Virus record (IMG/VR): IMGVR_UViG_3300031853_000024
DNA from: an uncultured virus (IMG/VR IMGVR_UViG_3300031853_000024)
Lineage: Duplodnaviria; Heunggongvirae; Uroviricota; Caudoviricetes; Schitoviridae
DNA length: 20,000 bases
Direction: 5' to 3' (one strand)
The position numbers were made by a program, and so were the translations under genes. The first letter of the stretch is position 1. Each line of letters opens with the position of its first letter. Below, piece by piece: positions 279 to 20,000 of the stretch. A model generated the notes under the pieces. The model saw only the letters and a program-made list of their open reading frames with translations, was not told the DNA's origin and searched no databases.

Positions 279-291
279 GTCCCTACGGGAC
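279..291 (+). promoter_or_regulatory. Hairpin promoter candidate (N4 vRNAP type), copy 1
   Basis: GTCCC-TAC-GGGAC, a perfect 5-bp stem. The template strand reads C-GTA-G. It sits between a terminator and the first gene of an operon. Confidence 0.7.
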
Positions 292-1295: not shown

Positions 1296-1322
1296 AATTA
1301 ACTCCTATATTACATGCTAACC

Positions 1323-1352
1323 AAAGCCCTAGTAATAGGGCTTTTTATTTTT
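1323..1352 (+). terminator. Rho-independent terminator
   Basis: AAAGCCCTA-GTAA-TAGGGCTTT perfect stem with a GNRA loop, followed by a T-rich tract. Confidence 0.85.
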
Positions 1353-1364
1353 AAGGATATTATT

Positions 1365-1697
1365 ATGAAATTTGTTAAATTTAATTTTAGAGAACTATTT
1401 AAACAAGCAGTAATCGAAGAAGTATTCCAAATTAGAAATAGAAAATTATTAAGTCATAGAATATATGAATTAAATGAAGATACAAGTCAAATTCAGTGGT
1501 TTATTATTGAATTGGTATATGAAAGAAAGGGTATTGTATTTCCTGTTATGGTTACATTCTTTAAATATGCAGGTTGTAATCAAGTAAAAATGAAATTAAA
1601 AGAATTTATGTCATATAGTAATAAACCATTACCTAAAACAACAATAGAAAAAATTGAAACCATGTTTAAATTACTTGGTTTAGATATTGTAAGATAA
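1365..1697 (+). CDS. Hypothetical protein; possible outlying member of the 'YxxILG' paralog family
   Basis: Start moved to ATG 1365, after an AAGGA SD and downstream of the terminator. C-terminus IETMFKLLGLDIVR resembles the array motif. Confidence 0.65.
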   Translation: MKFVKFNFRELFKQAVIEEVFQIRNRKLLSHRIYELNEDTSQIQWFIIELVYERKGIVFPVMVTFFKYAGCNQVKMKLKEFMSYSNKPLPKTTIEKIETMFKLLGLDIVR

Positions 1698-3575: not shown

Positions 3576-3588
3576 GCCCCTACGGGGC
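3576..3588 (+). promoter_or_regulatory. Hairpin promoter candidate (N4 vRNAP type), copy 2
   Basis: GCCCC-TAC-GGGGC directly after a terminator and about 30 nt before the helicase ATG. Confidence 0.7.
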
Positions 3589-5188: not shown

Positions 5189-7724
5189 CGGACAACCAAT
5201 AAAACTAATCTTAATTAAACCAAATTGTTTAATTGAAGATAAGTTGGTTAAGTACTATGGTGGTGATTTTACAGCTATAGGAACACCTAGTAATGGACCC
5301 GATAGAAAAACATTTAAAGCTGATTTAAAGATAATGATACCTGCTACTACTAAGTGCATTATATGTGCTGATGTAGATATGTTTAAATCATTAACTAAGA
5401 TGAAAAAAACAGGTAACTTAGATGGTGTACCTGTTGATACTGAATTAGGTATTCCTGCATTCATAATGCCTAATTACAACAGTATATTCTATAATCCTGA
5501 AGAGGCTCAAAGCAGAATGGATTATATCAATGAGCATATTAATGATTATCTTAATGGTTCATATAAAGTAATAGGAGATAACATTATTCATTCTTCTGAA
5601 TATCCTACCAATATTATGGAAGTGAATATGTTTCTTAAAAAGCTGTATCAATATGATAAGATAACAGTGGATATTGAAACAGCTAGTAACCATTTTATAG
5701 AACTACCACCTAAAGAAGAAGAACAGTTTGGTAGTGGATTACACCATTTCTCTAATAGGTTATATTCTATTGGTTTTGCTTGGGATAAACATAATGGTGG
5801 AGCATTTATATATGATGATTCTTATAGAGATTTATTAAAACAATTCTTTATAAGTTATTCAGGTAGATTAATATTCCATAATGCATCATTTGATATAACA
5901 CAGCTTATATATCATTTATTTATGAATGATTTAGAAGATTATCCTAATATGCTAGAAGGATTGCATTGTATGTGTGATAAAACAGATGATACATACTTAA
6001 TGTCCTATCTAGCACTTAATTCATGTTCATCACCTTCATTAAGTCTTAAATCATTAGCTTATGAGTATTCAGGTAATTATGCAGAAGATGTATCTGATGT
6101 AACTAAAGTACCTGTTCATAATCTTTTGGTTTATAACTTAAAAGATGTTTTATCTACTTGGTTTGTATATGAGAAATACTACCCTAAAATGATAGAAGAT
6201 GAACAGGAAACTATTTATAAGGATTTATTTCTACCTAGTCTTAAAACATTAATACAAACTCAATTAGTTGGTTTTAGAATTAATGTTAATGCATTAGATA
6301 AATTAACTGCTGATTTAAATAAACAGTATGATGATTTAATTAATAAGTTAATGCAATATCCTGAAATTAAACAGGTAGAACATATCTTAAACCAAAGAGA
6401 ATTAATTAAATGGAACAGTGATAGCAAACATAAGAAAGTAAAAACTATTAAAGATTTTAATAAAACCTTTAATCCAGGTAGTACTAATCATGTAGCTATA
6501 TTGTTATATGATATTCTTAAAATACCTGTTATTGAATTAACTGAAGGCGGTCAACCTTCATGTTCATCTAAGACTTTAAAGAAATTGATAAATAGAATTA
6601 CTGACCAAAGATTATTAGATATTCTTCAATTATTTATTGATATATCTGCTGTTGACCAAATATTAGTTCTATTTATTCCTGCATTTCAAAGAACACCTAC
6701 TATGAGTGATGGTACTAAAGGTTTATTTGGTTCATTCAATTTAGGTGGAACTAAAACAGGTAGATTATCTAGTTCTAAGCCAAATCTACAAAACTTACCT
6801 TCTACAGGTTCACCATATGCTAAACCTGTTAAAGATATATTTGTAGCACCTAAAGGATTTATATTTGTAGGTGCAGACCAAAGGAGTTTGGAAGATAGAA
6901 TCAGTGCATTAACTACTAGAGATCCAAATAAGATAAAGGTATATACAGAAGGATATGACGGACATTGTTTACGGTCTTATTCATATTTCCAAGAAAAAAT
7001 GCCTGATATTACTGAAGAAATAAATAAAGGTGAGAAATCAGAAGTAGAAATTATTAATTCTATTAAATCAAGATACCCTGAATTAAGACAGAAGTCTAAG
7101 AGTATTACTTTCTGCTTAACTTATAGTGGTACTAAATATGCTCTTATGCAGGAATGTGGATTATCAGAAGAAGATGCAATCCAAGCTGAATCAAGATACC
7201 ATGAACTGTATAAAGTATCAGACCAATGGGTTAAAGACCATGTAAATAAAGCTTGTAAAGAGGGTTATGTTACATGTGCTTTTGGTTTAAAATTAAGAAC
7301 ACCTTTAATTAAGAAAGCTATTATGGGAGATAAACATACATTGAAAGAGGCTAGAGCAGAGGCTAGAACAGCAGGTAATGCTTTAGGTCAATCATGGTGT
7401 TTACTTAATAATAGAAGTGCTAATGAAGTAATGCAAATAGTATGGAATAGTCCATATAAGTATGATGTATTACCTGTAGCAGAAATTCATGATGCTCTAT
7501 ATTTCTTTGTTAAAGATAATTTAGAGATATTATCTTGGTTTAATAAAATATTAATTAAAGCTATGGAATGGCAGGAAGATCCTATTATTGCTCATGATAA
7601 AGTTAAATTAGGTGGAGATTTGGAAGTATTCTATCCTACATGGGCTCATGGTATTGATATACCTAATGGAGCTTCTAAAGATGAAATTGTAGAGGTATTA
7701 CTAAATGAGAAGAATAACAAATGA
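5175..7724 (+). CDS. DNA polymerase, family A, with 3'-5' exonuclease (N4-like)
   Basis: Exo I DIET, Exo II HNASFD, Exo III YNLKD; TGRLSSSKPNLQNLP; motif A DQRSLEDR; motif B RQKSKSITFCLTY (Phe at the position equivalent to E. coli 762); motif C EIHDA. Confidence 0.95.
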   Translation: MVVCNGQPIKLILIKPNCLIEDKLVKYYGGDFTAIGTPSNGPDRKTFKADLKIMIPATTKCIICADVDMFKSLTKMKKTGNLDGVPVDTELGIPAFIMPNYNSIFYNPEEAQSRMDYINEHINDYLNGSYKVIGDNIIHSSEYPTNIMEVNMFLKKLYQYDKITVDIETASNHFIELPPKEEEQFGSGLHHFSNRLYSIGFAWDKHNGGAFIYDDSYRDLLKQFFISYSGRLIFHNASFDITQLIYHLFMNDLEDYPNMLEGLHCMCDKTDDTYLMSYLALNSCSSPSLSLKSLAYEYSGNYAEDVSDVTKVPVHNLLVYNLKDVLSTWFVYEKYYPKMIEDEQETIYKDLFLPSLKTLIQTQLVGFRINVNALDKLTADLNKQYDDLINKLMQYPEIKQVEHILNQRELIKWNSDSKHKKVKTIKDFNKTFNPGSTNHVAILLYDILKIPVIELTEGGQPSCSSKTLKKLINRITDQRLLDILQLFIDISAVDQILVLFIPAFQRTPTMSDGTKGLFGSFNLGGTKTGRLSSSKPNLQNLPSTGSPYAKPVKDIFVAPKGFIFVGADQRSLEDRISALTTRDPNKIKVYTEGYDGHCLRSYSYFQEKMPDITEEINKGEKSEVEIINSIKSRYPELRQKSKSITFCLTYSGTKYALMQECGLSEEDAIQAESRYHELYKVSDQWVKDHVNKACKEGYVTCAFGLKLRTPLIKKAIMGDKHTLKEARAEARTAGNALGQSWCLLNNRSANEVMQIVWNSPYKYDVLPVAEIHDALYFFVKDNLEILSWFNKILIKAMEWQEDPIIAHDKVKLGGDLEVFYPTWAHGIDIPNGASKDEIVEVLLNEKNNK

Positions 7725-8682
7725 TTTAGGTATAGATAATATTATTGCTACTTGGCTTGCTAGTAATTCTTACAGCGGTAAGAAACAGGGTAAATGCATA
7801 TCTGCTACTACACTGTTAAGAAGTACGCAGCAACAGGTATTAGGTTATCGTTGTATGAATAGTGATGATTATGTAGAACAGGTAGATATAAGTACATTAC
7901 TTAAATCTCAAATAGGTACTGCTCTACATAAATCTATTCAAGATACATGGGAATCTAAAGGATTAAGAGAAAATGGATTACTTAATCTAGGTGTTTCACC
8001 TGAAAAGATAGCTAAGATTTGTGTTAATCCTGAGAATCCAAGTCCTGATAAATATAATCTATTCTTTGAAAAAAGAGTAGAGAAAGAATTTAAAGGTTGG
8101 ACTATTACAGGTCAATTTGATTTGGTTTGTAATGGTAATTTACATGATTTTAAATCTACTAGTACTTATACTTATGTAAATAAAACCAAAGAGAAAGATT
8201 ATATCTTACAGGGTAGTATTTATAGATGGTTAAATCCTGAATTAATTACAGGTGAGTTTATTACCATTCATTATATATTTACTGATTGGAATAAAAACTA
8301 TACACTAAGTAATCCTGACTACCCTAAGTGTCCTTTTGTAAGTGTTAAATTACCTTTAATGAGTATTACTGAAATTGAGACATTTATGAGTAATAAGATT
8401 ATGGGTATTGAGGCTTATCTTGAAGAAGAGAATCTACCTGAATGTGATGCTAAAACATTAATGATAGATGAGGTATGGCAATACTTTAGTTCTAATACTG
8501 CCCTACGGGCAAGCAAGAACTTTGATAGTCTTATTGAGGCTAATGCTTATTTACTATCTAAAGGTGGTAAAGGAGTAGTTAAAAAGAAAGCTTCTGAACC
8601 TAAGGGCTGCAGCTATTGTAACTGTAGAAATGTATGTAAGCAGTATAAACGATTTGTTAGTGAAGGTTTAATTAAGGAGTAA
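7705..8682 (+). CDS. PD-(D/E)XK exonuclease, Cas4/RecB-like
   Basis: GTALH, EKR, GQFD...DFKST, QxxIY motifs and a C-terminal CxxCxCxxxC cluster. Confidence 0.85.
   Translation: MRRITNDLGIDNIIATWLASNSYSGKKQGKCISATTLLRSTQQQVLGYRCMNSDDYVEQVDISTLLKSQIGTALHKSIQDTWESKGLRENGLLNLGVSPEKIAKICVNPENPSPDKYNLFFEKRVEKEFKGWTITGQFDLVCNGNLHDFKSTSTYTYVNKTKEKDYILQGSIYRWLNPELITGEFITIHYIFTDWNKNYTLSNPDYPKCPFVSVKLPLMSITEIETFMSNKIMGIEAYLEEENLPECDAKTLMIDEVWQYFSSNTALRASKNFDSLIEANAYLLSKGGKGVVKKKASEPKGCSYCNCRNVCKQYKRFVSEGLIKE
8499..8511 (+). promoter_or_regulatory. Intragenic hairpin promoter candidate, copy 3
   Basis: TGCCC-TAC-GGGCA inside the nuclease gene, about 170 nt upstream of the primase start. Confidence 0.55.
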
Positions 8683-8683
8683 T

Positions 8684-10855
8684 ATGAACATAGAAGAAGA
8701 AATTAAGAATGCTCAATATGACCCTACTATGGAAAAGATACTAGGTATTATTGAGCGTAAAACCAATAACAATTCACATAATTATTTTAGAGTTGTTATT
8801 TCATTCTACTTGGCTCAAGTAGCATCATCAATGCGATGTAAAATTAAAGGCAAAGTAAATAACAATGTACCTGTTAATATGTATGCTTGTGGTTTAATGC
8901 AATCAGGAGCAGGTAAAGGTCATAGTCAAGATATACTTGAATCACAGGTAGTAAATAAATTTAGAAATACATTTATGAACTCTACTATGCCACATGTTGC
9001 TAAAACCTCTATTGAAAAATTAGCTACTCAAAAAAGTATTGTAACAGGTATGCCTGTAGATGAATGTTTAAAAGCATTAACTGCAGAATATGTAGATTAT
9101 GGTAATTTTCCATATGCATTTGATAGTGCTACAGGACCAGCATTTAAACAGGTTAGAGCTAAAGCACAGTTAGCTAAAATAGGTGCATTATCATTTATAT
9201 GTGATGAAATAGGTTCTAATATATTAGCTAATCCTGAGTTATTAGCTATTGGTTTGGAAGTATTTGATTTAGGTAAAACCAAGAATAAATTAACTAAGGA
9301 TAGTGCTAATAGTAAGAGAACAGAATCAAGAGAAGACCCTGTACCTACTAATATGCTTTGGTTTGGTACACCTGCTAAATTACTTAATTCAGGTAAAGAA
9401 GAAGATGAGTTCTATTCTCAATTACAGGCAGGATATGCACGTAGATTATTCTATGGTGAGGGTACTAAACAAAATAAGAAATTCAAATCAGGTAAAGAAT
9501 TTAGAGAAGATTTACTTAAAGGTAATTCAGATAAAACATTACAGGATTTATCTGATAATTTAGGTATATTATCTAATCTTCAATACTATGATAAAACATT
9601 ATTGTTAGGTGATGCAGAAGAAGAATTGCTATATGATTATCAGCTTTATTGTGAACAAAGAGCTGAATCATTATCTGATGAGGCTACTGAGGCATTAAGT
9701 AAAGCTGAATTAAGTACACGTCATTGGAAAGCTCTTAAATTAGCAGGTGCATATGCATTCTGTGAAAAGAGTAATACAGTAGAGCGTAGACACTTATTAG
9801 CTGCATTTAAGCTAGCTGAAGATAGTGGTCAATCCTTTAGAAAGATAATGTATAGAGATCCTGACTTTGTTAAGCTTGCTAAGTATATTAGTAAAGCAGG
9901 TAAACCATTAACTTATGCTGCATTAGCAGAGGTATTACCATTCTTTAAGGATAAACAGAAACAAGCTACAGAATATCTTATTACTTTGGCTTCTGCATGG
10001 GGATATGATAATGGTATTGCTATTAAATCATTTGAAATAAATAAAATACCATTCCTTGAAGGACAAAGACTTGAAGAAACCAATCTAAATAAACTTATTA
10101 TTTCTACATCTAATGATATTTCTAATAACTATCAAAACCAAGAAATACCATGGACTAAGATTAATAGATTAGGTAAAGCTAATGGATTACATTGGTGTAC
10201 ACATCATTTTATGCCTGATGCAGCACACCCTGAATTAGGTAATCATAGAAGTCAAAAGTATGTAATACCAGCTTTTAATTTGTTGGCTTTAGATATTGAT
10301 GGTAATTGTTCTATTGAATCAGCTCAAGAGATTTTAAAAAATTATACATATTGTATTTATACTACTAAATCTCATACTGAGGCTACGCCTCGTTTTAGAA
10401 TAATTTTACCAATGAAATATAAATTATTCTTAAATAAAGATGATTATTCAATCTTTATGCAGAATATCTTTGATACATTACCATTTGTAGGTATTGATTC
10501 TCAAACCAAAGATATTGCTCGTAAATGGTTAACTAATGATGGTCAGGTATTTATGAATACAGGTGAATTATTTGATCCTAGACCATTTATCCCTAATACA
10601 GCTCAAGATAGAGAACGTAAGGAGAAGATTAAACAATATGGAGATATTGATAATATTACTCGTTGGTTCTTAGAGCGTATTAAAGAAGGCAATAGGAATT
10701 GTCAATTATTCCGTTATGGTATGATGTTGAAAGACCAAGGTTATGATATTAATGAAGTAGAGAGTAGAATACTTGGATTAAATGCTAAGTTAGAGAAACC
10801 ATTAGATATTAATGAAATTCATACTACTATCATTCAATCAATATCAGTTAAATAA
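8684..10855 (+). CDS. DNA primase (N4-like; N-terminal P-loop domain plus C-terminal primase/PriCT-like domain)
   Basis: SGAGKG P-loop and DEIG in the N-half; LDID, YTTKSH, PRFRIILP and GNRN in the C-half; AAGGAG SD; position matches the N4 replication module. Confidence 0.85.
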   Translation: MNIEEEIKNAQYDPTMEKILGIIERKTNNNSHNYFRVVISFYLAQVASSMRCKIKGKVNNNVPVNMYACGLMQSGAGKGHSQDILESQVVNKFRNTFMNSTMPHVAKTSIEKLATQKSIVTGMPVDECLKALTAEYVDYGNFPYAFDSATGPAFKQVRAKAQLAKIGALSFICDEIGSNILANPELLAIGLEVFDLGKTKNKLTKDSANSKRTESREDPVPTNMLWFGTPAKLLNSGKEEDEFYSQLQAGYARRLFYGEGTKQNKKFKSGKEFREDLLKGNSDKTLQDLSDNLGILSNLQYYDKTLLLGDAEEELLYDYQLYCEQRAESLSDEATEALSKAELSTRHWKALKLAGAYAFCEKSNTVERRHLLAAFKLAEDSGQSFRKIMYRDPDFVKLAKYISKAGKPLTYAALAEVLPFFKDKQKQATEYLITLASAWGYDNGIAIKSFEINKIPFLEGQRLEETNLNKLIISTSNDISNNYQNQEIPWTKINRLGKANGLHWCTHHFMPDAAHPELGNHRSQKYVIPAFNLLALDIDGNCSIESAQEILKNYTYCIYTTKSHTEATPRFRIILPMKYKLFLNKDDYSIFMQNIFDTLPFVGIDSQTKDIARKWLTNDGQVFMNTGELFDPRPFIPNTAQDRERKEKIKQYGDIDNITRWFLERIKEGNRNCQLFRYGMMLKDQGYDINEVESRILGLNAKLEKPLDINEIHTTIIQSISVK
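10379..10391 (+). promoter_or_regulatory. Intragenic hairpin, copy 4 (variant)
   Basis: GAGGC-TAC-GCCTC, a perfect 5-bp stem inside the primase gene with the same C-TAC-G core. Confidence 0.4.
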
Positions 10856-10869
10856 TTACCTTCTATTAA

Positions 10870-11022
10870 TGAGAGAGATTGATAGTGACATTCTTGGTAA
10901 TGTGATAACCGAGGGTCAGATATGTTCGGATTTATCTTTAATTTATGCAGGTGCTTTATAGCAGTGTGCAGAATATTTAAAATTAAGTTCTAAATGTATT
11001 TAGGTAAAAATATCACTCTTCA
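10870..11022 (+). ncRNA. Candidate structured non-coding RNA or origin-like element
   Basis: ORF-free intergenic region in a genome that is otherwise tightly packed. It has several hand-predicted stems, a closing helix and its own terminator (see findings). Confidence 0.35.
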
Positions 11023-11079: not shown

Positions 11080-11092
11080 CAGCCTACGGCTG
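11080..11092 (+). promoter_or_regulatory. Hairpin promoter candidate (N4 vRNAP type), copy 5
   Basis: CAGCC-TAC-GGCTG between a terminator and the ATPase ATG at 11115. Confidence 0.7.
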
Positions 11093-13305: not shown

Positions 13306-15273
13306 TTACTCTTCTAAATTAGCAAAATCTATTAATTTATTAATAGTGTACTTGCGAGGGAAAGCTAAGTTTAAAGCTGCAGCTACCCATTCAACTGATG
13401 ACATAGAATGCTCATGCATTAGATGTCTATATCCCATATCACCAATCATACTACCACGTTTATACTGAGTCTTTTCAAAGAATTTCTCTACATGATAAGG
13501 CTTAACTGTAGGCATATTAATTTTATATAAATCTACATCAGTATAAGCTTCAGTATATTCCATTACACCAGCATCTTCTCTACAAGCATAATAAGTTATT
13601 TCTTCAGGTATAGGTGTATTCTCAGAAACTAACCATAAACCCACATGAGTATAATCACTATTTAATATCTTAGATAATAATACTTCTATAGGTCTAGGAC
13701 TTACATGTGTAGGATAATTCTTAGGTAATACATTTAATATATGCTCAGGTTGAGCTAATGGAGGTATAAATGTACCTTTTAATGGTGGAGGTAATCTACC
13801 TACTAAATGTCTTAATCTAGGATCTATAGGTAGAGGTGGAAACTCTTTAGATGTTAAATTAGTTTTAATTATTCTAATTAATTTATCAAATATAGACGTT
13901 GCACCTTTATAACATACTAAATAGATACCTTTATTTATTATACCTGTAGGTTCAGGTTCTGGCTCAGGTTCTGGTTCAGGTTCAGGTAATATAGGTTCAT
14001 AGTAATCAAAGTAATTATCTTTCATTACATATGGTTTAGTTTCTGAATATACATGAACTGCAACATAATCTACTATTTTAGATGCATCTTGAGCAACATG
14101 ACTTAATGCACTTGATATATCAGAAAAACCTGGTATTACATCTCTAAAAAAACTACCAGGTAAAGTTCTACCACATATTTCTACTAAATCAAAATACTCA
14201 CCATCAAAGTAAAAATCTTTTAAATTACCATATGTTTCATAAGGTATTACTAGTTCATGCCAAGTAGATAATGTATCAGCAGGTAGTTGTTTTAATACTC
14301 TTATTGAAGGGTTAATCATCCATGACCATATTTTTAATTCTTTGGTTTCAGGGTCTATCCATAAATCTCCAGTAGAGGATAGATTACCATCGACATTTCC
14401 TGTTGTATGAAAATGTATTAATCTATAAATACGATTTTCACCATTAGTCTCAGTAAATTTAAATCTAAATATATAAGCACAATTTAATGTATCGTTAGGA
14501 TCTTCATGGTAATGAATAGAAGTTGGAATCCAGTTTAAAGTAAATCCAGACTTTAATATTGCATTAGTAAACTCAGGTACTTTAGTACCTGCATTATATC
14601 CATCTACTAATTGGTATTCTCCATCTATAACACCATCAGTAGATGTAAATATATAATAGCCATTAACTAGTATTTCATTAGGAAAATTATTGTATTTGCC
14701 TGCTTGAGAATTATTTCCAATATATGCACATTTATCTACCGTGGCACTTCTAAGTAATACATCATTTATACCTAATGTATAATTTCCTATTTTTCTTCCC
14801 GGAGCATATACTTGAGTACCATAATCAGTTATAAAACCAACATAAACTAATAAACTTCCATCTGTATCTGTTTTTAAGTATGGTCTAATATTATCAGAAG
14901 CATATGTACCACCTGTATGAGCACCATTTGCATTTATAGCATATACAAAAGAATGTAATTCCTCATTCTCATAATAAGAGAATATGAAATAAGTACATGC
15001 TTTTTCTTTAAATTGAACACTATAATCAAAAATAAAAGGTACTCTATAAGTATTACCTGTTATTGGCTCACCTCTAGTAGGATTGTCTTTCCAAAATTCA
15101 TTATAAATATCTGCTATATGCCAACCTTCTTCTAATGCAGTAGTTACATTAGACCTGTATTTACATGTACCTCTTGAATCACCAGAGTATTCATATGGAT
15201 AAAAATAAGAAACATAGTACTGCTTGTTAGGAGGCAATACTATAGTTAAATTAAATGGTGCAGTAGTACTCAT
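13306..15273 (-). CDS. Multidomain protein: beta-rich N-terminal region, (PE)n linker, C-terminal permuted papain-like (NlpC/P60-type) domain
   Basis: Start moved to 15273 (TAATG overlap with the upstream stop; GGAG SD). The C-terminal IYLVCYKG...DKLIR...YTHVGL...REDAGV...EKFFEKT...SSVEWVAAAL follows the pattern of phage permuted papain-like proteins as I recall it. Confidence 0.6.
   Translation of the reverse strand: MSTTAPFNLTIVLPPNKQYYVSYFYPYEYSGDSRGTCKYRSNVTTALEEGWHIADIYNEFWKDNPTRGEPITGNTYRVPFIFDYSVQFKEKACTYFIFSYYENEELHSFVYAINANGAHTGGTYASDNIRPYLKTDTDGSLLVYVGFITDYGTQVYAPGRKIGNYTLGINDVLLRSATVDKCAYIGNNSQAGKYNNFPNEILVNGYYIFTSTDGVIDGEYQLVDGYNAGTKVPEFTNAILKSGFTLNWIPTSIHYHEDPNDTLNCAYIFRFKFTETNGENRIYRLIHFHTTGNVDGNLSSTGDLWIDPETKELKIWSWMINPSIRVLKQLPADTLSTWHELVIPYETYGNLKDFYFDGEYFDLVEICGRTLPGSFFRDVIPGFSDISSALSHVAQDASKIVDYVAVHVYSETKPYVMKDNYFDYYEPILPEPEPEPEPEPEPTGIINKGIYLVCYKGATSIFDKLIRIIKTNLTSKEFPPLPIDPRLRHLVGRLPPPLKGTFIPPLAQPEHILNVLPKNYPTHVSPRPIEVLLSKILNSDYTHVGLWLVSENTPIPEEITYYACREDAGVMEYTEAYTDVDLYKINMPTVKPYHVEKFFEKTQYKRGSMIGDMGYRHLMHEHSMSSVEWVAAALNLAFPRKYTINKLIDFANLEE
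13948..13986 (-). repeat. Pro-Glu tandem repeat (PEPEPEPEPEPEP) linker
   Basis: CCW-GAR hexamer repeats over 39 nt. Confidence 0.95.
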
Positions 15274-15470
15274 TATTTTATTCTCCGTAAATATAGAACC
15301 AAAGCTAAAGTACATAAATCTACTATGTTTTGGTCTTTTGGTTTAGTAATAAATTGAAATCCTCTATCCATAAGACTTTGCATCAAAGATTCATTTGATA
15401 CATCTTTTGGATAGAGGAATGTAGTATTCTCTTTAATATGAACTAATAGCTCATCTAACTTATCTTCCAT
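15273..15470 (-). CDS. Hypothetical protein
   Basis: GGAG SD; translationally coupled to the downstream large ORF. Confidence 0.65.
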   Translation of the reverse strand: MEDKLDELLVHIKENTTFLYPKDVSNESLMQSLMDRGFQFITKPKDQNIVDLCTLALVLYLRRIK

Positions 15471-15554: not shown

Positions 15555-15567
15555 GCCCCTACGGGGC
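15555..15567 (+). promoter_or_regulatory. Hairpin promoter candidate (N4 vRNAP type), copy 6
   Basis: GCCCC-TAC-GGGGC, identical to copy 2, 35 nt before the first gene of the paralog array. Confidence 0.7.
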
Positions 15568-15601: not shown

Positions 15602-15991
15602 ATGGATAACTTAAATATATCTAGAAATTTATTTCTTGGTTTAAACAATCACAATGCTACATTTCAATTACTTAGAAGTAGAATAAAAACAGGAACAAGA
15701 AATAATAAAACATATTATATAATTCCTGTTAGAGTAATATATAGAACAATGTGGGGTTATTACTCATTTATTATTACATACAATATATATCAAGAAGGAG
15801 ATATACGTATGGATATAAATAAAAACATATATGCAAAGAATTACAGTGATTATATGGCATTAAAATGCTATTGTGGAACTGAAGTATATAGACCATGTGA
15901 TTTATTAAGGAATTATTTTAATATTCTTGGTTTAATTGACTCTAAAACAACTATAGTTGCTAAACATGGTCTATGGGTATGGCAAGCTTAA
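15602..15991 (+). CDS. YxxILG-family paralog 1
   Basis: Contains RNYFNILGL; AAGGA SD. Confidence 0.7.
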   Translation: MDNLNISRNLFLGLNNHNATFQLLRSRIKTGTRNNKTYYIIPVRVIYRTMWGYYSFIITYNIYQEGDIRMDINKNIYAKNYSDYMALKCYCGTEVYRPCDLLRNYFNILGLIDSKTTIVAKHGLWVWQA

Positions 15992-16245
15992 TAGAAGAAT
16001 TAGCTAAAGCATACGTAGATAGTATGCCTTTAGATACTATAAAAGATAAAATTGAAGATATAGTTACTACATACTATAAAGACAATATATTTACTATAAG
16101 TATTTATTTAAATGACTATTCACGCATACTTATATGGGTAGATTTAAATGATAAGCCTTCTTTTAGCATAAATAGTAATTATATTGGTAGAGCAATAGGT
16201 GAAATAGTTAATTACTTTGAAATACTTGGTTTTAGGGAAATATAA
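15973..16245 (+). CDS. YxxILG-family paralog 2
   Basis: MPLDTI ... VNYFEILGFREI. Confidence 0.75.
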   Translation: MGMASLIEELAKAYVDSMPLDTIKDKIEDIVTTYYKDNIFTISIYLNDYSRILIWVDLNDKPSFSINSNYIGRAIGEIVNYFEILGFREI

Positions 16246-16502
16246 TGACTACACAAGATGTTTATAATTTATATGCAAATTTACCATTAAATTTAGATGA
16301 TATATTATCTATTGAATTTTCTAATGAGAGTAGTGAACAAGAAAGTTGTTACTCTATTAGTATAACATTTAAATACATAATCAAGTTTTCTAATAGAATA
16401 GGGATATTTATATTTCCTGATACTATGGAATATAAAGCTTATCTAGGTGTACCTGAAGAATTACATGCTTATTTAAAAGTAGTAGGGTTTAGGGAAATTT
16501 AA
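16245..16502 (+). CDS. YxxILG-family paralog 3
   Basis: LPLNL ... HAYLKVVGFREI; TAATG overlap. Confidence 0.75.
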   Translation: MTTQDVYNLYANLPLNLDDILSIEFSNESSEQESCYSISITFKYIIKFSNRIGIFIFPDTMEYKAYLGVPEELHAYLKVVGFREI

Positions 16503-16530
16503 ATACAATTTGAATTAAGTTTACATAAAT

Positions 16531-16552
16531 AGGGTACTAAGTACCCTTTTTT
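16531..16552 (+). terminator. Terminator/attenuator inside the array
   Basis: AGGGTAC-TAA-GTACCCT followed by TTTTT. Confidence 0.7.
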
Positions 16553-16565
16553 ATTAGGAGTTATC

Positions 16566-16877
16566 ATGAACAATAATGAATTACTTAATTTAATAGATAA
16601 TATACCACATGAAATATTAACATATGCTAATTCTAAATATACAGTTCAAGAAATAGCATTTCCTCCAAAGAGAGTAGAAATTAATTTTGTTTTAAATAAC
16701 GCTATTGTATGTTTTATAAAAGTATATGGAGATAGCACTATATTCTTATCTTATTTTAATGCTGCATTAGCTTATTTTAATGGTGAAGAAGAAAAACCAG
16801 AATATAGAAATTGCTATATTGCTATGGAACAAACCAAAGCATATCTAGAAATATTAGGATTTCAATGTGTTAATTAG
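16566..16877 (+). CDS. YxxILG-family paralog 4
   Basis: IPHEIL ... KAYLEILGF; AGGAG SD. Confidence 0.8.
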   Translation: MNNNELLNLIDNIPHEILTYANSKYTVQEIAFPPKRVEINFVLNNAIVCFIKVYGDSTIFLSYFNAALAYFNGEEEKPEYRNCYIAMEQTKAYLEILGFQCVN

Positions 16878-16889
16878 AGTAATTAGCTT

Positions 16890-17201
16890 ATGAATAAAAC
16901 AGTATTAGATTTAATAGAAAATATGCCATATGAGATATATGGTAATAAATATTATAAAGGTAGACACTTTAATGATGAAATAGATTATTACCAATGGGAC
17001 TATGATACTAAATCCAAGTATTATAATTATCAAATTAATATATTTGAATGTGGTACTTATTTAGAAATCTATTCATATAAAAATGATGGAATCCTACCTG
17101 TTAGGGAAGTACCTAAAACAATAGCAAATACATTAGATAATATAGCTAGTTATTTTAATATTCTTGGTTTTACTGTAGGGAAAAAATATGACTACAAGTG
17201 A
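16890..17201 (+). CDS. YxxILG-family paralog 5
   Basis: MPYEIY ... ASYFNILGF. Confidence 0.8.
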   Translation: MNKTVLDLIENMPYEIYGNKYYKGRHFNDEIDYYQWDYDTKSKYYNYQINIFECGTYLEIYSYKNDGILPVREVPKTIANTLDNIASYFNILGFTVGKKYDYK

Positions 17202-17505
17202 GATAGTAAAGATAATAAAGAGTATGCCTCCTAACATATATAGTAATGAATATTATAAGAATAATCATTATGTTAATAATATAGGTTATTGTTCATGGAA
17301 TTATGATACTAAATCTAAATATTGCTCTGATTATCAAATTAAATTATTTGAACGTGATGGTAGCATAGGTATCTATCTCTTTAGAATGGATAAGGTTTTA
17401 CCTGTTAAAAAAGGACCTAAAGTAATTATAAATTCATTACAGAGTATAGCAGCTTATTTTAGAATTATTGGTTTTAAGGTAGAAACATTCTATGACCGCA
17501 AATGA
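17188..17505 (+). CDS. YxxILG-family paralog 6
   Basis: MPPNIY ... AAYFRIIGF; close paralog of no. 5. Confidence 0.8.
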   Translation: MTTSEIVKIIKSMPPNIYSNEYYKNNHYVNNIGYCSWNYDTKSKYCSDYQIKLFERDGSIGIYLFRMDKVLPVKKGPKVIINSLQSIAAYFRIIGFKVETFYDRK

Positions 17506-17836
17506 AGAAAATAGAAGAGATATATTATCTAAGCTACCTGATGAGTTGCTGCAAACCAAAGAATGTAAATTAATACATTCTTGGATTAGTAGTACACCTC
17601 ATGCAGCTTGGAGATTACTAGCATATTGTGAACCATATAGTATTAAATCAATAGAGTTAACTATAACTGATATAAGTGTTCGTGGTTCTTATTTTGTAGT
17701 TATTAAAGTATTTATCTCAGGTACTAAATATGACTACTTTAATGCACCTAAAAATAAATCATACCCTCAAGTAGATATAGCATATCAAATAGCTAATTAT
17801 TTAAAGATATTAGGATTATACGTAAATGACCATTAA
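17492..17836 (+). CDS. YxxILG-family paralog 7
   Basis: LPDELL ... ANYLKILGL. Confidence 0.8.
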   Translation: MTANEENRRDILSKLPDELLQTKECKLIHSWISSTPHAAWRLLAYCEPYSIKSIELTITDISVRGSYFVVIKVFISGTKYDYFNAPKNKSYPQVDIAYQIANYLKILGLYVNDH

Positions 17837-18122
17837 TGAATTACTTAATGTATTATATACTGTACCCTTTAATAAACTAACAGATGGTATTATTTATTGT
17901 AGAATAAATAACTTTGTAGACGTTGTATCTACTCTAGGTAGAGTAGATATAGATTTTATGAGAGGTAATACATGTATAGGTTTTATAAGGGTATATGGAG
18001 ATAATACTATAAACCCTGCATTACCTGAAATATTAGAAACAAATCCAAGACGTAAAGAATATTTAGAAGTTATAGAAAAAGTTATAGCTTACTTAGAAAT
18101 AATAGGATTTAAAACCATATGA
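17826..18122 (+). CDS. YxxILG-family paralog 8
   Basis: VPFNKL ... IAYLEIIGF; close paralog of no. 4. Confidence 0.8.
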   Translation: MTINELLNVLYTVPFNKLTDGIIYCRINNFVDVVSTLGRVDIDFMRGNTCIGFIRVYGDNTINPALPEILETNPRRKEYLEVIEKVIAYLEIIGFKTI

Positions 18123-18418
18123 TTACTTTACCTGAAGAATTATATACTAGTGAATTAGTAGATATAATATGTATACCTAATGAAGAATATGAAAATATTA
18201 CATTAAATGTAATACCATATAAATATGCACAAGAAACAGAAGAAGTAGCTGATATTTGGTTTAGAGAAAACACTTACTGTATAGATCAAGTACATTACCG
18301 TTTAAAAGATAAAGTAGGTAATGAAATGGTAGATAATGAAGTAAAAGAAATATTAGTTAATATAAAGAACTATTTAGATATTCTTGGTTTTAAGGATATT
18401 ACACATGATGAATACTAA
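18119..18418 (+). CDS. YxxILG-family paralog 9
   Basis: LPEELY ... KNYLDILGF; ATGA overlap. Confidence 0.8.
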   Translation: MITLPEELYTSELVDIICIPNEEYENITLNVIPYKYAQETEEVADIWFRENTYCIDQVHYRLKDKVGNEMVDNEVKEILVNIKNYLDILGFKDITHDEY

Positions 18419-18758
18419 AACAGCAAAAATAACAAATGCTCAATTAGATGCAGGAGCACAAATAGAAAAGTTTATATCAGATATACCATTAGATTTATTA
18501 GGTAAACATGATTTTGGTATAGGTATTAAAAAAGATATTAGATGGGGACATGACCCATATGGTGTATATGAATTATATGTACCTGATGAAAATAAAATAT
18601 TACATGCTGTATTAACAGCTATTATTACTAAGAGTACATATCAAATAACAACTTATACATTATTCTATGATGATAAAATAATTGATGAAATAGATAATAT
18701 AAAAAGTAAATTAGAAGCTTATTTTGGTATTCTTGGTTTAGAGAAAAAAGATGAATAA
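18405..18758 (+). CDS. YxxILG-family paralog 10
   Basis: IPLDLL ... EAYFGILGL. Start moved to ATG 18405/18408, after AAGGA. Confidence 0.8.
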   Translation: MMNTKTAKITNAQLDAGAQIEKFISDIPLDLLGKHDFGIGIKKDIRWGHDPYGVYELYVPDENKILHAVLTAIITKSTYQITTYTLFYDDKIIDEIDNIKSKLEAYFGILGLEKKDE

Positions 18759-19023
18759 ATTAGAATTAATTAATAATATTAAAGACTTATATGTTAATGC
18801 ATACTTTGTAGGATTTACTGAAGGTATATTTGTAAATAATAGTATTTTACTAAAATATAAATATCCTAATATGTATACTGAAAAAGTAGGAATTGCTATT
18901 GTATTTGAAAATGATGGTGCTATAACTATAATAAATTGGTTTAAAGGTGATTTAACTAAAGATATAGTTAATAAATTAATGAACTATTTTAAGTTACTTG
19001 GATATACAGTAACTAAGATATGA
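18751..19023 (+). CDS. YxxILG-family paralog 11
   Basis: Ends in MNYFKLLGY; lacks the N-terminal Pro. Confidence 0.75.
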   Translation: MNKLELINNIKDLYVNAYFVGFTEGIFVNNSILLKYKYPNMYTEKVGIAIVFENDGAITIINWFKGDLTKDIVNKLMNYFKLLGYTVTKI

Positions 19024-19030
19024 GATACAT

Positions 19031-19381
19031 ATGGATTCACTATTAAAGGCTCAACTAGAAACAGCCGAACAAATAGATAACTTTATGTCAGGTATTCCAA
19101 TAGATTTATTTGATAAACCTGATTTCTTCATAGGCATACATAGAGAAATTATGTGGGATAATCGTGGTGATCCATTTGGTAAATATGATTTAGTTGTACC
19201 TGATAAGAATAATTTACGATTTAGTGTATTATCTGCAATTATTACTAAGACTACATATCAAGTACATACTAATACAAGATTTTATGATGATAATGTAAAG
19301 ACTACAATAAATAATATAAAGAATAGGTTAGAAGCCTATTGTAGTATTATGGGTTTAGTAGAAAAGATAGTCCACTATTAA
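19031..19381 (+). CDS. YxxILG-family paralog 12
   Basis: IPIDLF ... EAYCSIMGL; close paralog of no. 10. Confidence 0.8.
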   Translation: MDSLLKAQLETAEQIDNFMSGIPIDLFDKPDFFIGIHREIMWDNRGDPFGKYDLVVPDKNNLRFSVLSAIITKTTYQVHTNTRFYDDNVKTTINNIKNRLEAYCSIMGLVEKIVHY

Positions 19382-19389
19382 GTGGACTA
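19362..19389 (-). terminator. Hairpin at the convergent junction, probably the minus-strand terminator
   Basis: TAGTCCACT-ATTA-AGTGGACTA perfect 9-bp stem. On the minus strand it is followed by TCTTTT. Confidence 0.6.
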
Positions 19390-19462
19390 GAAAAAAGGCT
19401 GTTAACTGGTCCGCTATAACTAAGCGCATAACAGCTCTATTATTTGGTTAAAAACAATAATA

Positions 19463-19492
19463 TTACTTCTTTTTCTTTCCACCACAACCCAT
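19463..19492 (-). CDS. Candidate 9-aa micropeptide MGCGGKKKK
   Basis: Strong TAAGGAGA SD overlapping the upstream stop codon; the GGAG core is 6 nt from the ATG. Confidence 0.45.
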   Translation of the reverse strand: MGCGGKKKK

Positions 19493-19502
19493 AATAGTCT
19501 CC

Positions 19503-19718
19503 TTATTCAAACAACTTAACCTTAACACTTTTACACAATTCTTTAATCTCATTGTCATTCTTTAAATCAGTTTTATATGCTTTTAAACATACCTTTTCTA
19601 AGTTATCAGACTGTTCAATAAGATGGTTTTCATGACTAACAGCTCCCCATAAAAATATTGATAAGCCAACTATTACAATTAACACAACACCGCCAAATTC
19701 AAAAGACTCAATATCCAT
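19503..19718 (-). CDS. Small membrane-anchored protein
   Basis: N-terminal transmembrane helix (GGVVLIVIVGLSIFLWGAV), two Cys; GAGG SD. Confidence 0.6.
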   Translation of the reverse strand: MDIESFEFGGVVLIVIVGLSIFLWGAVSHENHLIEQSDNLEKVCLKAYKTDLKNDNEIKELCKSVKVKLFE

Positions 19719-19830
19719 AAACCCTCACTTGAGTAAGTGTCTTGCAAGACAATTTAACTTCACATCCCACGTGGGAACGCACAGGATTTCAACCTGTTTA
19801 TAGCAAGACACTTGAAATCAATTTGCTACT

Positions 19831-20000
19831 CTATTTGCTACTTTCTAACTGTTCAATTCTAGCTGTCAGTTCCTTTAGCTTCTTTCGTAAATAAGCGCAC
19901 TCAACGATTAAGGCTTCTGTATACCTTAAACTGTAATGCTCAGATGCTTCTCTTATGACTTTTTTCTCTTTTGTTTTAGTTCCATCTTCATTTTCAACTT
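19831..20000 (-). CDS. Tail fibre/spike, C-terminal intramolecular chaperone (peptidase S74-like) end; partial
   Basis: My translation is ...VENEDGTKTKEKKVIREASEHYSLRYTEALIVECAYLRKKLKELTARIEQLESSK*. It matches the 'YxLRYxEAL..E.AY.R.....L..RI..LE' coiled-coil terminus of S74 chaperone domains. Not in the ORF track. Confidence 0.75.
   Translation of the reverse strand, partial: VENEDGTKTKEKKVIREASEHYSLRYTEALIVECAYLRKKLKELTARIEQLESSK

Follow-up and report, generated by a model that had tools for sequence, protein, structure and literature searches.

The 20,000-nucleotide (nt) stretch of DNA analyzed here (hereafter, the window) comes from an uncultured virus of the Schitoviridae (IMG/VR record IMGVR_UViG_3300031853_000024), belongs to a 73,942-bp sequence according to the cluster table, and is part of an N4-like podophage with ~29% GC. 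Positions 15602-19381 hold an array of twelve plus-strand open reading frames (ORFs), m01 to m12, which encode proteins of 85-129 amino acids (aa) and span ~3.8 kb in total (Table 1). A first-pass annotation of the letters alone had described these ORFs as highly diverged paralogs that carry one C-terminal motif and form an opposite-strand island between minus-strand genes. The coordinates, lengths, and motifs that it quoted were all confirmed, as was the island, from the ORF layout: ORFs 15273-15470 and 13306-15315 lie divergently on the left on the minus strand, and ORF 19503-19718 lies convergently on the right. Neighboring members overlap by 4-19 nt at seven junctions (m01/m02, m05/m06, m06/m07, m07/m08, m08/m09, m09/m10, and m10/m11, with m10 taken from the ATG at 18408), the ATG of m03 and the stop codon of m02 have one base in common, and gaps of 7-12 nt separate m04/m05 and m11/m12. 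For m10, comparison with its ortholog P0004 suggests that ATG 18408 rather than TTG 18384 is the likely start. The sole larger gap in the array (63 nt, between m03 and m04) contains a 7-bp hairpin and then a T-run.

The C-terminal motif, written as the regular expression Y-[FL]-x-[IL]-[IL]-G-[FL], matched 13 of the 55 six-frame stop-to-stop ORFs of at least 60 aa in the window, namely the twelve members and ORF 1314-1697, and in all 13 it lies 3-18 residues before the C terminus. An N-terminal hydrophobic-Pro motif is present in ten of the twelve members, just as first listed, and is missing at the aligned column from m01 and m11; in an alignment of 44 family sequences, this column holds a proline in 38. 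Pairwise BLAST revealed clear relatedness in three pairs only (m10/m12, 51% identity; m05/m06 and m04/m08, Table 1). Profile hidden Markov models (HMMs) were more sensitive: a leave-one-out test, the cross-detection check proposed with the first-pass annotation, recovered 12 of 12 members, each ranked just after the training sequences and ahead of all 42 remaining ORFs, with E-values from 1.4e-10 to 0.014 (m01 was marginal). These comparisons show that the twelve members are homologous, and the recurrence of the motif and the array itself are far beyond chance. The cores, once judged to be mostly unalignable, are in fact aligned by the profile and alternate between conserved hydrophobic and hypervariable positions within the predicted strands.

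The family had not been recognized at first sight, nor did the databases recognize it: none of the 44 sequences matched Pfam or PHROGs at E <= 0.001, and neither database returned anything for 13 window proteins. A profile search of all PDB sequences gave a single match (E 2.8), the best score in the ESM Atlas, which holds no structure of this protein, was at chance level (0.81), and none of 50,697 phage records was matched by the array in a blastn search. In a profile search of 1.84 billion representatives, only 15 proteins scored at E <= 0.001, all of 85-130 aa and with the same motif. A word-indexed search with a larger profile yielded 115 clusters at the 90% identity level, from contigs as long as 77.5 kb; none of these clusters has a Pfam domain, and their only name is "hypothetical protein". 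Our literature searches on Schitoviridae, N4-like hairpin promoters, phage anti-defense genes, and DUF488 turned up no published description of the family or of the array. As candidate homologs, gp70 and gp71 of N4 (NC_008720) were rejected, with hhalign probabilities of 0.08% (gp70) and 0.23% (gp71) against the 44-sequence profile and with a motif and predicted fold unlike those of the array members.

Table 1. Position and description of the array members and of other features in the window.
Feature	Position	Strand	Description
TAC hairpin	279..291	+	Upstream of ORF 326
ORF 1314-1697	1314..1697	+	Shares the C-terminal motif only (MFKLLGL); possible outlying relative
TAC hairpin	3576..3588	+	Upstream of Dda-like helicase gene
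TAC hairpin	8499..8511	+	Upstream of primase gene
TAC hairpin GAGGC-TAC-GCCTC	10379..10391	+	Inside primase ORF, ~730 nt before next gene
TAC hairpin	11080..11092	+	Upstream of Sak4-like gene
669-aa ORF	13306..15315	-	N-terminal ~440 aa conserved, PEPEPEP linker, variable C terminus; no Pfam or PHROG match
65-aa ORF	15273..15470	-	Conserved beside the array in 4/4 loci that reach it; no known family
TAC hairpin GCCCC-TAC-GGGGC	15555..15567	+	Candidate N4/LUZ7-type promoter; 35 nt before m01 ATG; template loop G-T-A; G 12 nt downstream of loop center
m01	15602..15991	+	129 aa, YFNILGL; weakest member by HMM; ortholog P0009 80% identical
m02	15973..16245	+	90 aa, YFEILGF
m03	16245..16502	+	85 aa, YLKVVGF; missing in one public DNA contig (X10, joint 16253 to 16528)
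Internal hairpin AGGGTAC-TAA-GTACCCT	16531..16547	+	Followed by T-run; terminator- or attenuator-like; between m03 and m04
m04	16566..16877	+	103 aa, YLEILGF; structure predicted
m05	16890..17201	+	103 aa, YFNILGF; paralog of m06 (47%)
m06	17188..17505	+	105 aa, YFRIIGF
m07	17492..17836	+	114 aa, YLKILGL
m08	17826..18122	+	98 aa, YLEIIGF; paralog of m04 (35%)
m09	18119..18418	+	99 aa, YLDILGF; isoelectric point 4.2, most acidic member
m10	18384..18758	+	YFGILGL; listed from TTG 18384 (124 aa); 116 aa from ATG 18408
m11	18751..19023	+	90 aa, YFKLLGY; L012 ortholog 62%
m12	19031..19381	+	116 aa, YCSIMGL; structure predicted; missing in contigs from three public runs
3' boundary element	19368..19441	.	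Hairpins 19368-19389 and 19397-19436; between the array and convergent late genes

AlphaFold2 models of m04 (from a 12-sequence alignment; predicted local distance difference test (pLDDT) score 79.2, predicted template modeling (pTM) score 0.72) and m12 (from the 44-sequence alignment; pLDDT 92.5, pTM 0.83) agree in the order of their elements: a long helix at the N terminus, a short one directly behind the conserved proline, a set of four antiparallel strands, a long helix near the C terminus, and finally a short strand. In both models the C-terminal helix ends in Y-L-x-I-L-G and the last strand begins at the F/L. The two models also have the same top PDB match over nearly the full chain (3RPJ, Crl), so that the proposed common scaffold is borne out both by the HMM cross-detection and by the topology of the models, whose likeness was judged by element order and the common best PDB match.

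Within the 44-sequence alignment (lengths 85-141 aa), the lowest-entropy columns are P23, Y103, and G108, together with the hydrophobic positions 22, 26, 27, 66, 100, 104, 106, 107, and 109. Along the strands, hydrophobic positions of low entropy (50, 52, 54, 66, 76, and 78) alternate with positions above 3 bits; the members' isoelectric points range from 4.2 to 9.5. Read together with the predicted secondary structure, the conserved ends look like hydrophobic helix faces plus capping proline and glycine residues, which would make up the core of the scaffold; the conserved hydrophobic positions of the strands would point inward, and the hypervariable residues look like the outward sheet face and the loops. 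It had been proposed that the conserved helices bind a shared partner or form the fold. The second option is the likelier: the conserved ends are more likely a fold core than a partner-binding surface because nearly all their residues are hydrophobic or are helix-capping proline and glycine. The shared partner gained no support.

Two alternatives tie the members to known families. Crl is a sigma-S-binding RNA polymerase assembly factor, and as the best match of both models over nearly the whole chain it invites the idea that the members are transcriptional or regulatory modulators, with a Crl-like fold that binds a sigma factor, the host RNA polymerase, or the phage polymerase and so tunes transcription instead of countering defense. 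We regard this as quite unlikely. None of the 44 members matched the Pfam Crl family. Foldseek gave no match at E <= 0.001 either in the PDB (m04 and m12) or in BFVD (m12). The members might also be degenerate domains derived from the Gcn5-related N-acetyltransferases (GNATs), that is, pseudo-enzymes or binders of small molecules or acyl-coenzyme A (CoA) of acetyltransferase descent. In GNATs, motif A, Q/R-x-x-G-x-G/A, binds the pyrophosphate of CoA. The corresponding expression, [QR]..G.[GA], occurs in 0 of 44 members, and Pfam acetyltransferase models matched none of the 44, nor any of 13 window proteins at E <= 0.1. Moreover, the members are only 85-141 aa long, the models have no strand between the last two helices, and all structural scores are weak, so we rate a GNAT origin as improbable.

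The copy number of the family varies among relatives, as the first-pass annotation had led us to expect. There are 12 members in the window, 10 in a contig from a public run (X10), seven plus a remnant in a 66.9-kb relative (G002/L002), at least four in L005, and 14 in a 72.6-kb contig (L012), which was covered over 15.8 kb, the stretch within which its array and promoter region were counted. The L012 members were scored with a profile that contained none of them; 11 reached E <= 0.001, two lay at 0.002-0.003, and one (0.33) was included by motif and position. In G002/L002, the 669-aa and 65-aa ORFs and the hairpin are as in the window, and there follow a 201-aa non-member, three members absent from the window, two non-members, an m12 ortholog, a truncated, start-less m05 remnant (L002 10315-10500), and orthologs of m06, m07, and m08. 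L005 has an extra member ahead of the m01 and m02 orthologs, plus a fourth member. In L012, the array contains an HTH_3 gene, is preceded by a DUF488 gene, and is inverted relative to the 65-aa ORF. The X10 contig, 3.7 kb of DNA, is colinear with the window without exactly m03 and m12, and the m12-less joint was seen in three runs from three studies; the internal hairpin at 16531-16547 is retained in this m03-less contig and is also found in L005. Related phages thus gain, lose, reorder, and exchange entire genes, with the changes falling at or close to gene borders. Throughout, the frame is conserved, with the 65-aa and 669-aa ORFs on one side and a 73-nt boundary element and a 71-aa ORF on the other, and between these flanks the content differs among the window, G002 (with three additional non-family ORFs), L005, L012, and X10. 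A joint from 17258 to 18093 (X5) and other joints with sides of ~21 nt were set aside as probably reflecting other cassettes or repeats.

Two sequences hint at how cassettes are lost. P0010 is a fusion protein with two copies of the C-terminal motif at its end; we take it, along with the m05 remnant of L002, to be the footprint of deletions with breakpoints near the motif-coding DNA. This DNA is the longest repeat common to many units (26 nt, 77-92% identity, five copies), and it is plausible that it serves as a substrate for unequal recombination.

Positions 17063-18111 and 19020-19365 of the window are 96.4% and 98.3% identical to L002, with a synonymous divergence (dS) of 0.03-0.06, whereas the primase, Sak4, single-stranded DNA-binding protein (SSB), RusA, and exonuclease genes of the window and G002 have dS >1.2 and 59-87% amino acid identity. 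These dS values point to recent exchange of cassettes between well-diverged phages. Array cassettes together with the right flank (17063-18111 and 19020-19857) are 92-98% identical to G002, a strong mosaicism. The suggestion that the array had expanded by gene-accordion duplication was not upheld: there are no recent duplicates, the closest paralogs are 47-53% identical, and most members are nearer to orthologs in other phages. Because most members have a closer ortholog elsewhere than any paralog within the array, the family appears to be old, without sign of recent amplification. By these sequence comparisons it is an old family with gain, loss, and exchange of cassettes, not a recent accordion amplification.

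Upstream of m01 lies the hairpin that had been put forward as the array's own promoter. A terminator makes no sense there since the region is intergenic between divergent genes. The sequence CCCTACGGG has four exact sites in the window, all on the plus strand, against a chance expectation of 0.28 (computed for at most one mismatch), and 0 of 200 shuffles reached four. With any GC-rich 5-bp stem (SSSSC-TAC-GSSSS), six hairpins were found, 6/6 on the plus strand, and five of the six stand shortly upstream of a plus-strand gene or operon start. Four of these six have a G at +12 from the loop center; in L012 the G is at +13. The shorter pattern SSCTACGSS occurs 15 times forward and twice in reverse in G002 (1 and 0 for a reversed-pattern control), with 12 of the forward sites in the first 31 kb, ending at the array. 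L002 and L005 both keep the TAC hairpin ahead of their arrays, and in L012 a terminator, a hairpin GTGCT-TTC-AGCAC (template loop GAA), and a ribosome-binding site stand in this order ahead of the DUF488-plus-array unit. Recurrence, strand bias, and retention in relatives make the promoter candidate at 15555 credible, and the TAC-hairpin class as a whole may represent the promoter consensus recognized by the RNA polymerase(s) of the phage itself.

These hairpins resemble known ones. According to PMC4496689, the early promoters of the N4 virion polymerase are GC-rich hairpins with a 3-nt loop centered at -11, in which the -10 G and -12 A form a sheared pair and the -11 base is a purine. For the N4-like phage LUZ7, PMC9163698 shows that hairpins act as promoters of early as well as middle genes; transcription begins at a G that lies 13-14 nt (early) or ~15 nt (middle) away. 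The likeness extends to the GC-rich 5-bp stem, the 3-nt loop, the template G-N-A, the G 12-13 nt downstream of the loop center, and the recurrence of a strand-specific element upstream of small early-type genes. The present hairpin class differs in that it also precedes replication genes, and the array is found after the replication genes and ahead of the late block rather than at a genome end. On the architecture of these sequences, we think it probable that a phage-encoded polymerase transcribes the array earlier than the late genes. Contigs of an RNA-labeled library fall on m01/m02, m04, and m06/m07, a weak hint given that DNA may be present in such a library; this run (X24) has no contig upstream of 15590 or over several members, which says nothing about transcript start or silence.

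The surroundings of the array bear on a further alternative, that the members are virion- or tail-fiber-associated adaptors or chaperones encoded at the end of a tail-fiber block. The array does abut tail-fiber-like late genes in the window, L002, and L012. Yet it lies on the opposite strand to these late genes and converges with them, the hairpin class before it is that of the replication genes and not of the late genes, and Pfam and PHROGs gave no fiber or chaperone family signature; we consider this alternative highly improbable. At the right edge of the window, the last minus-strand ORF encodes the C terminus of a tail fiber or spike (PHROGs). On the left, the 669-aa ORF probably encodes a component of the virion or tail whose distal domain can be exchanged. 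Homologs of this ORF were seen at L012 4454-5941, in a late, tail-fiber block, and at L004 7802-9631, in a structural-gene block.

On its right, the array ends in the boundary element, whose second hairpin is followed by a U-run on the minus strand. Its 73 nt at 19369-19441 are 97% identical to L012 9656-9728, compared with ~69-82% (DNA) for other genes common to both phages, and its folding z-scores are -3.0 and -4.1 on the two strands. Other final cassettes abut at 19372 in other public runs (as loose contig ends), and contigs of the RNA-labeled library also cover the element. Its role may be that of a terminator acting in both directions or of a boundary for recombination.

On the plus strand ahead of the array, PHROGs names genes for Dda-like helicase, DNA polymerase, exonuclease, primase, Sak4-like annealing protein, SSB, and RusA. 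Over 98% of its length, the family-A DNA polymerase shares ~45% identity with its counterparts in N4-like phages of Salmonella, Escherichia, and Klebsiella. Most public runs that hold this stretch are labeled bovine gut metagenome, and a search of the window found no Rfam family. Adjacent ORFs of ~410-430 aa with weak, sub-threshold RNA_pol (PF00940) signals occur at L004 11505-12737 and 12827-14116 and at G002 ~7100-8300; these pairs probably correspond to the N4 RNAPII-like polymerase, in the split form that this clade would have. In L012, the HTH_3 (Cro/C1-type) gene in mid-array occupies 10623-10979 and the DUF488-N3a gene at the head of the transcription unit 14759-15157, both on the minus strand. 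Regulator genes sit beside anti-CRISPR genes. By analogy, the embedded HTH_3 gene recalls these, which is a weak hint.

ORF 1314-1697 was tried as a thirteenth member and was not supported, with a leave-one-out rank of 16 (E 0.19) and an hhalign probability of 9% that covered the last 16 residues only. Because the 5' end as annotated contains a hairpin (1323-1344) and a T-run, the real start may be ATG 1365. Two further plus-strand ORFs, 2334-2606 in the upstream small-gene region and L002 9272-9790, inserted in the array, have similar ends by eye (W..PFG..VEE) and otherwise look unrelated.

What might the array do? Our best available inference, to which the sequences and models together lend about an even chance, is a diversified, host-directed arsenal of binders or counter-defense proteins. 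The locus is a hypervariable accessory region of an N4-like phage, made up of twelve old, strongly diverged paralogs of a lineage-specific small cytoplasmic alpha/beta protein. As an operon, it would have an N4/LUZ7-type hairpin promoter, of the class shared with the replication genes, and a phage-encoded RNA polymerase would transcribe it from there ahead of the late genes. Each protein would be a stand-alone binder or inhibitor whose variable sheet face recognizes a different strain-variable protein of the host (or of a competitor). The targets would most plausibly be components of host defense or host physiology, and the set present in a phage would change to suit the hosts that it encounters. 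A bolder proposal, which we hold only tentatively, is that an undescribed binder scaffold with a constant helical core and a hypervariable beta-sheet face forms a modular, horizontally traded library of 7-14 cassettes in each genome under pre-late hairpin promoters for the phage polymerase, in which each cassette neutralizes a different, strain-variable host defense or host factor, so that the library would act as a combinatorial determinant of host range or counter-defense in a whole gut N4-like clade.

Several points weigh against the idea of a host-directed arsenal. First, searches of the PDB and BFVD found no link, by structure or by sequence, to characterized anti-defense proteins. Second, burial of the conserved residues was deduced indirectly, from the alignment and the predicted secondary structure. 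Third, the promoter is a candidate put forward from sequence architecture. The template loop is 5'-GTA-3' and so has a T at -11, where N4 requires a purine (PMC4496689; the outer G and A agree), and early and middle expression cannot be told apart because the same hairpin class precedes the replication genes. Fourth, the ratio of nonsynonymous to synonymous substitution rates (dN/dS), 0.52-1.31 in seven ortholog pairs against 0.07-0.27 in five replication genes, speaks for fast protein evolution and hence for the arsenal, but it comes from a crude Nei-Gojobori calculation in a region of 25% GC, with few substitutions in four of the pairs (synonymous differences, Sd, 2-3.5) and saturated dS in the controls. 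Flanking genes used as controls gave 0.62 (669-aa ORF), 0.46 (71-aa ORF), and 0.25 (65-aa ORF), the first two being elevated as well. High dN/dS fits relaxed constraint equally well as diversifying selection, and dN/dS showed no consistent contrast between the ends and the core.

The same dN/dS values, near 0.5-1.3, would also fit factors for inter-phage competition or superinfection exclusion, or near-functionless cassettes that persist in a recombination-tolerant region. Decay is evident in the truncated remnant of L002 and the P0010 fusion, whole genes are dispensable in close relatives, and cassettes have recently been exchanged between diverged phages. Set against this, all 12 frames are intact and tightly coupled through overlaps of 4-19 nt, core residues are conserved over 44 diverged sequences, ortholog groups persist across phages whose replication genes are synonymously saturated, and at least 115 clusters keep the profile. 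On balance, we judge competition factors or idle cassettes to be unlikely, and we retain the host-directed arsenal as the working interpretation.

As it stands, the phage devotes ~5% of its ~74-kb genome to one undescribed protein family, and the makeup of this family turns over more quickly than the remainder of the genome. Were its members target-specific inhibitors, the family would offer, in compact form, at least a dozen new anti-defense or host-takeover proteins on one small, well-predicted scaffold. It would likewise represent a natural case, in a phage, of diversification by scaffold plus variable surface and, for gut Schitoviridae, a marker of how host range evolves. In addition, the hairpins provide a candidate promoter consensus for an N4-like clade that is uncultured.

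Large DNA viruses carry multigene families and gene accordions, such as the multigene families (MGFs) of African swine fever virus (ASFV) and the amplification of K3L in poxviruses. The array resembles these in being a set of diverged tandem viral paralogs whose copy number varies between strains. It differs in that it has no near-identical copies (the closest paralogs are 47-53% identical), in the size of its genome (~74 kb), and in that it varies by loss, gain, and exchange of cassettes rather than by amplification. The protein family is new to the databases searched, while the array as a genome feature is a variation on themes already known from phage accessory regions and from viral multigene families. 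With the fast-evolving accessory regions and anti-defense islands of phages (e.g., bioRxiv 10.1101/2023.04.06.535777), it has in common conserved flanks, variable small unannotated genes, exchange of cassettes between phages, and, as inferred here, pre-late expression. Accessory regions of this kind are usually mixtures of unrelated ORFans, whereas here nearly all cassettes, and 12 of 12 in the window, belong to one family.

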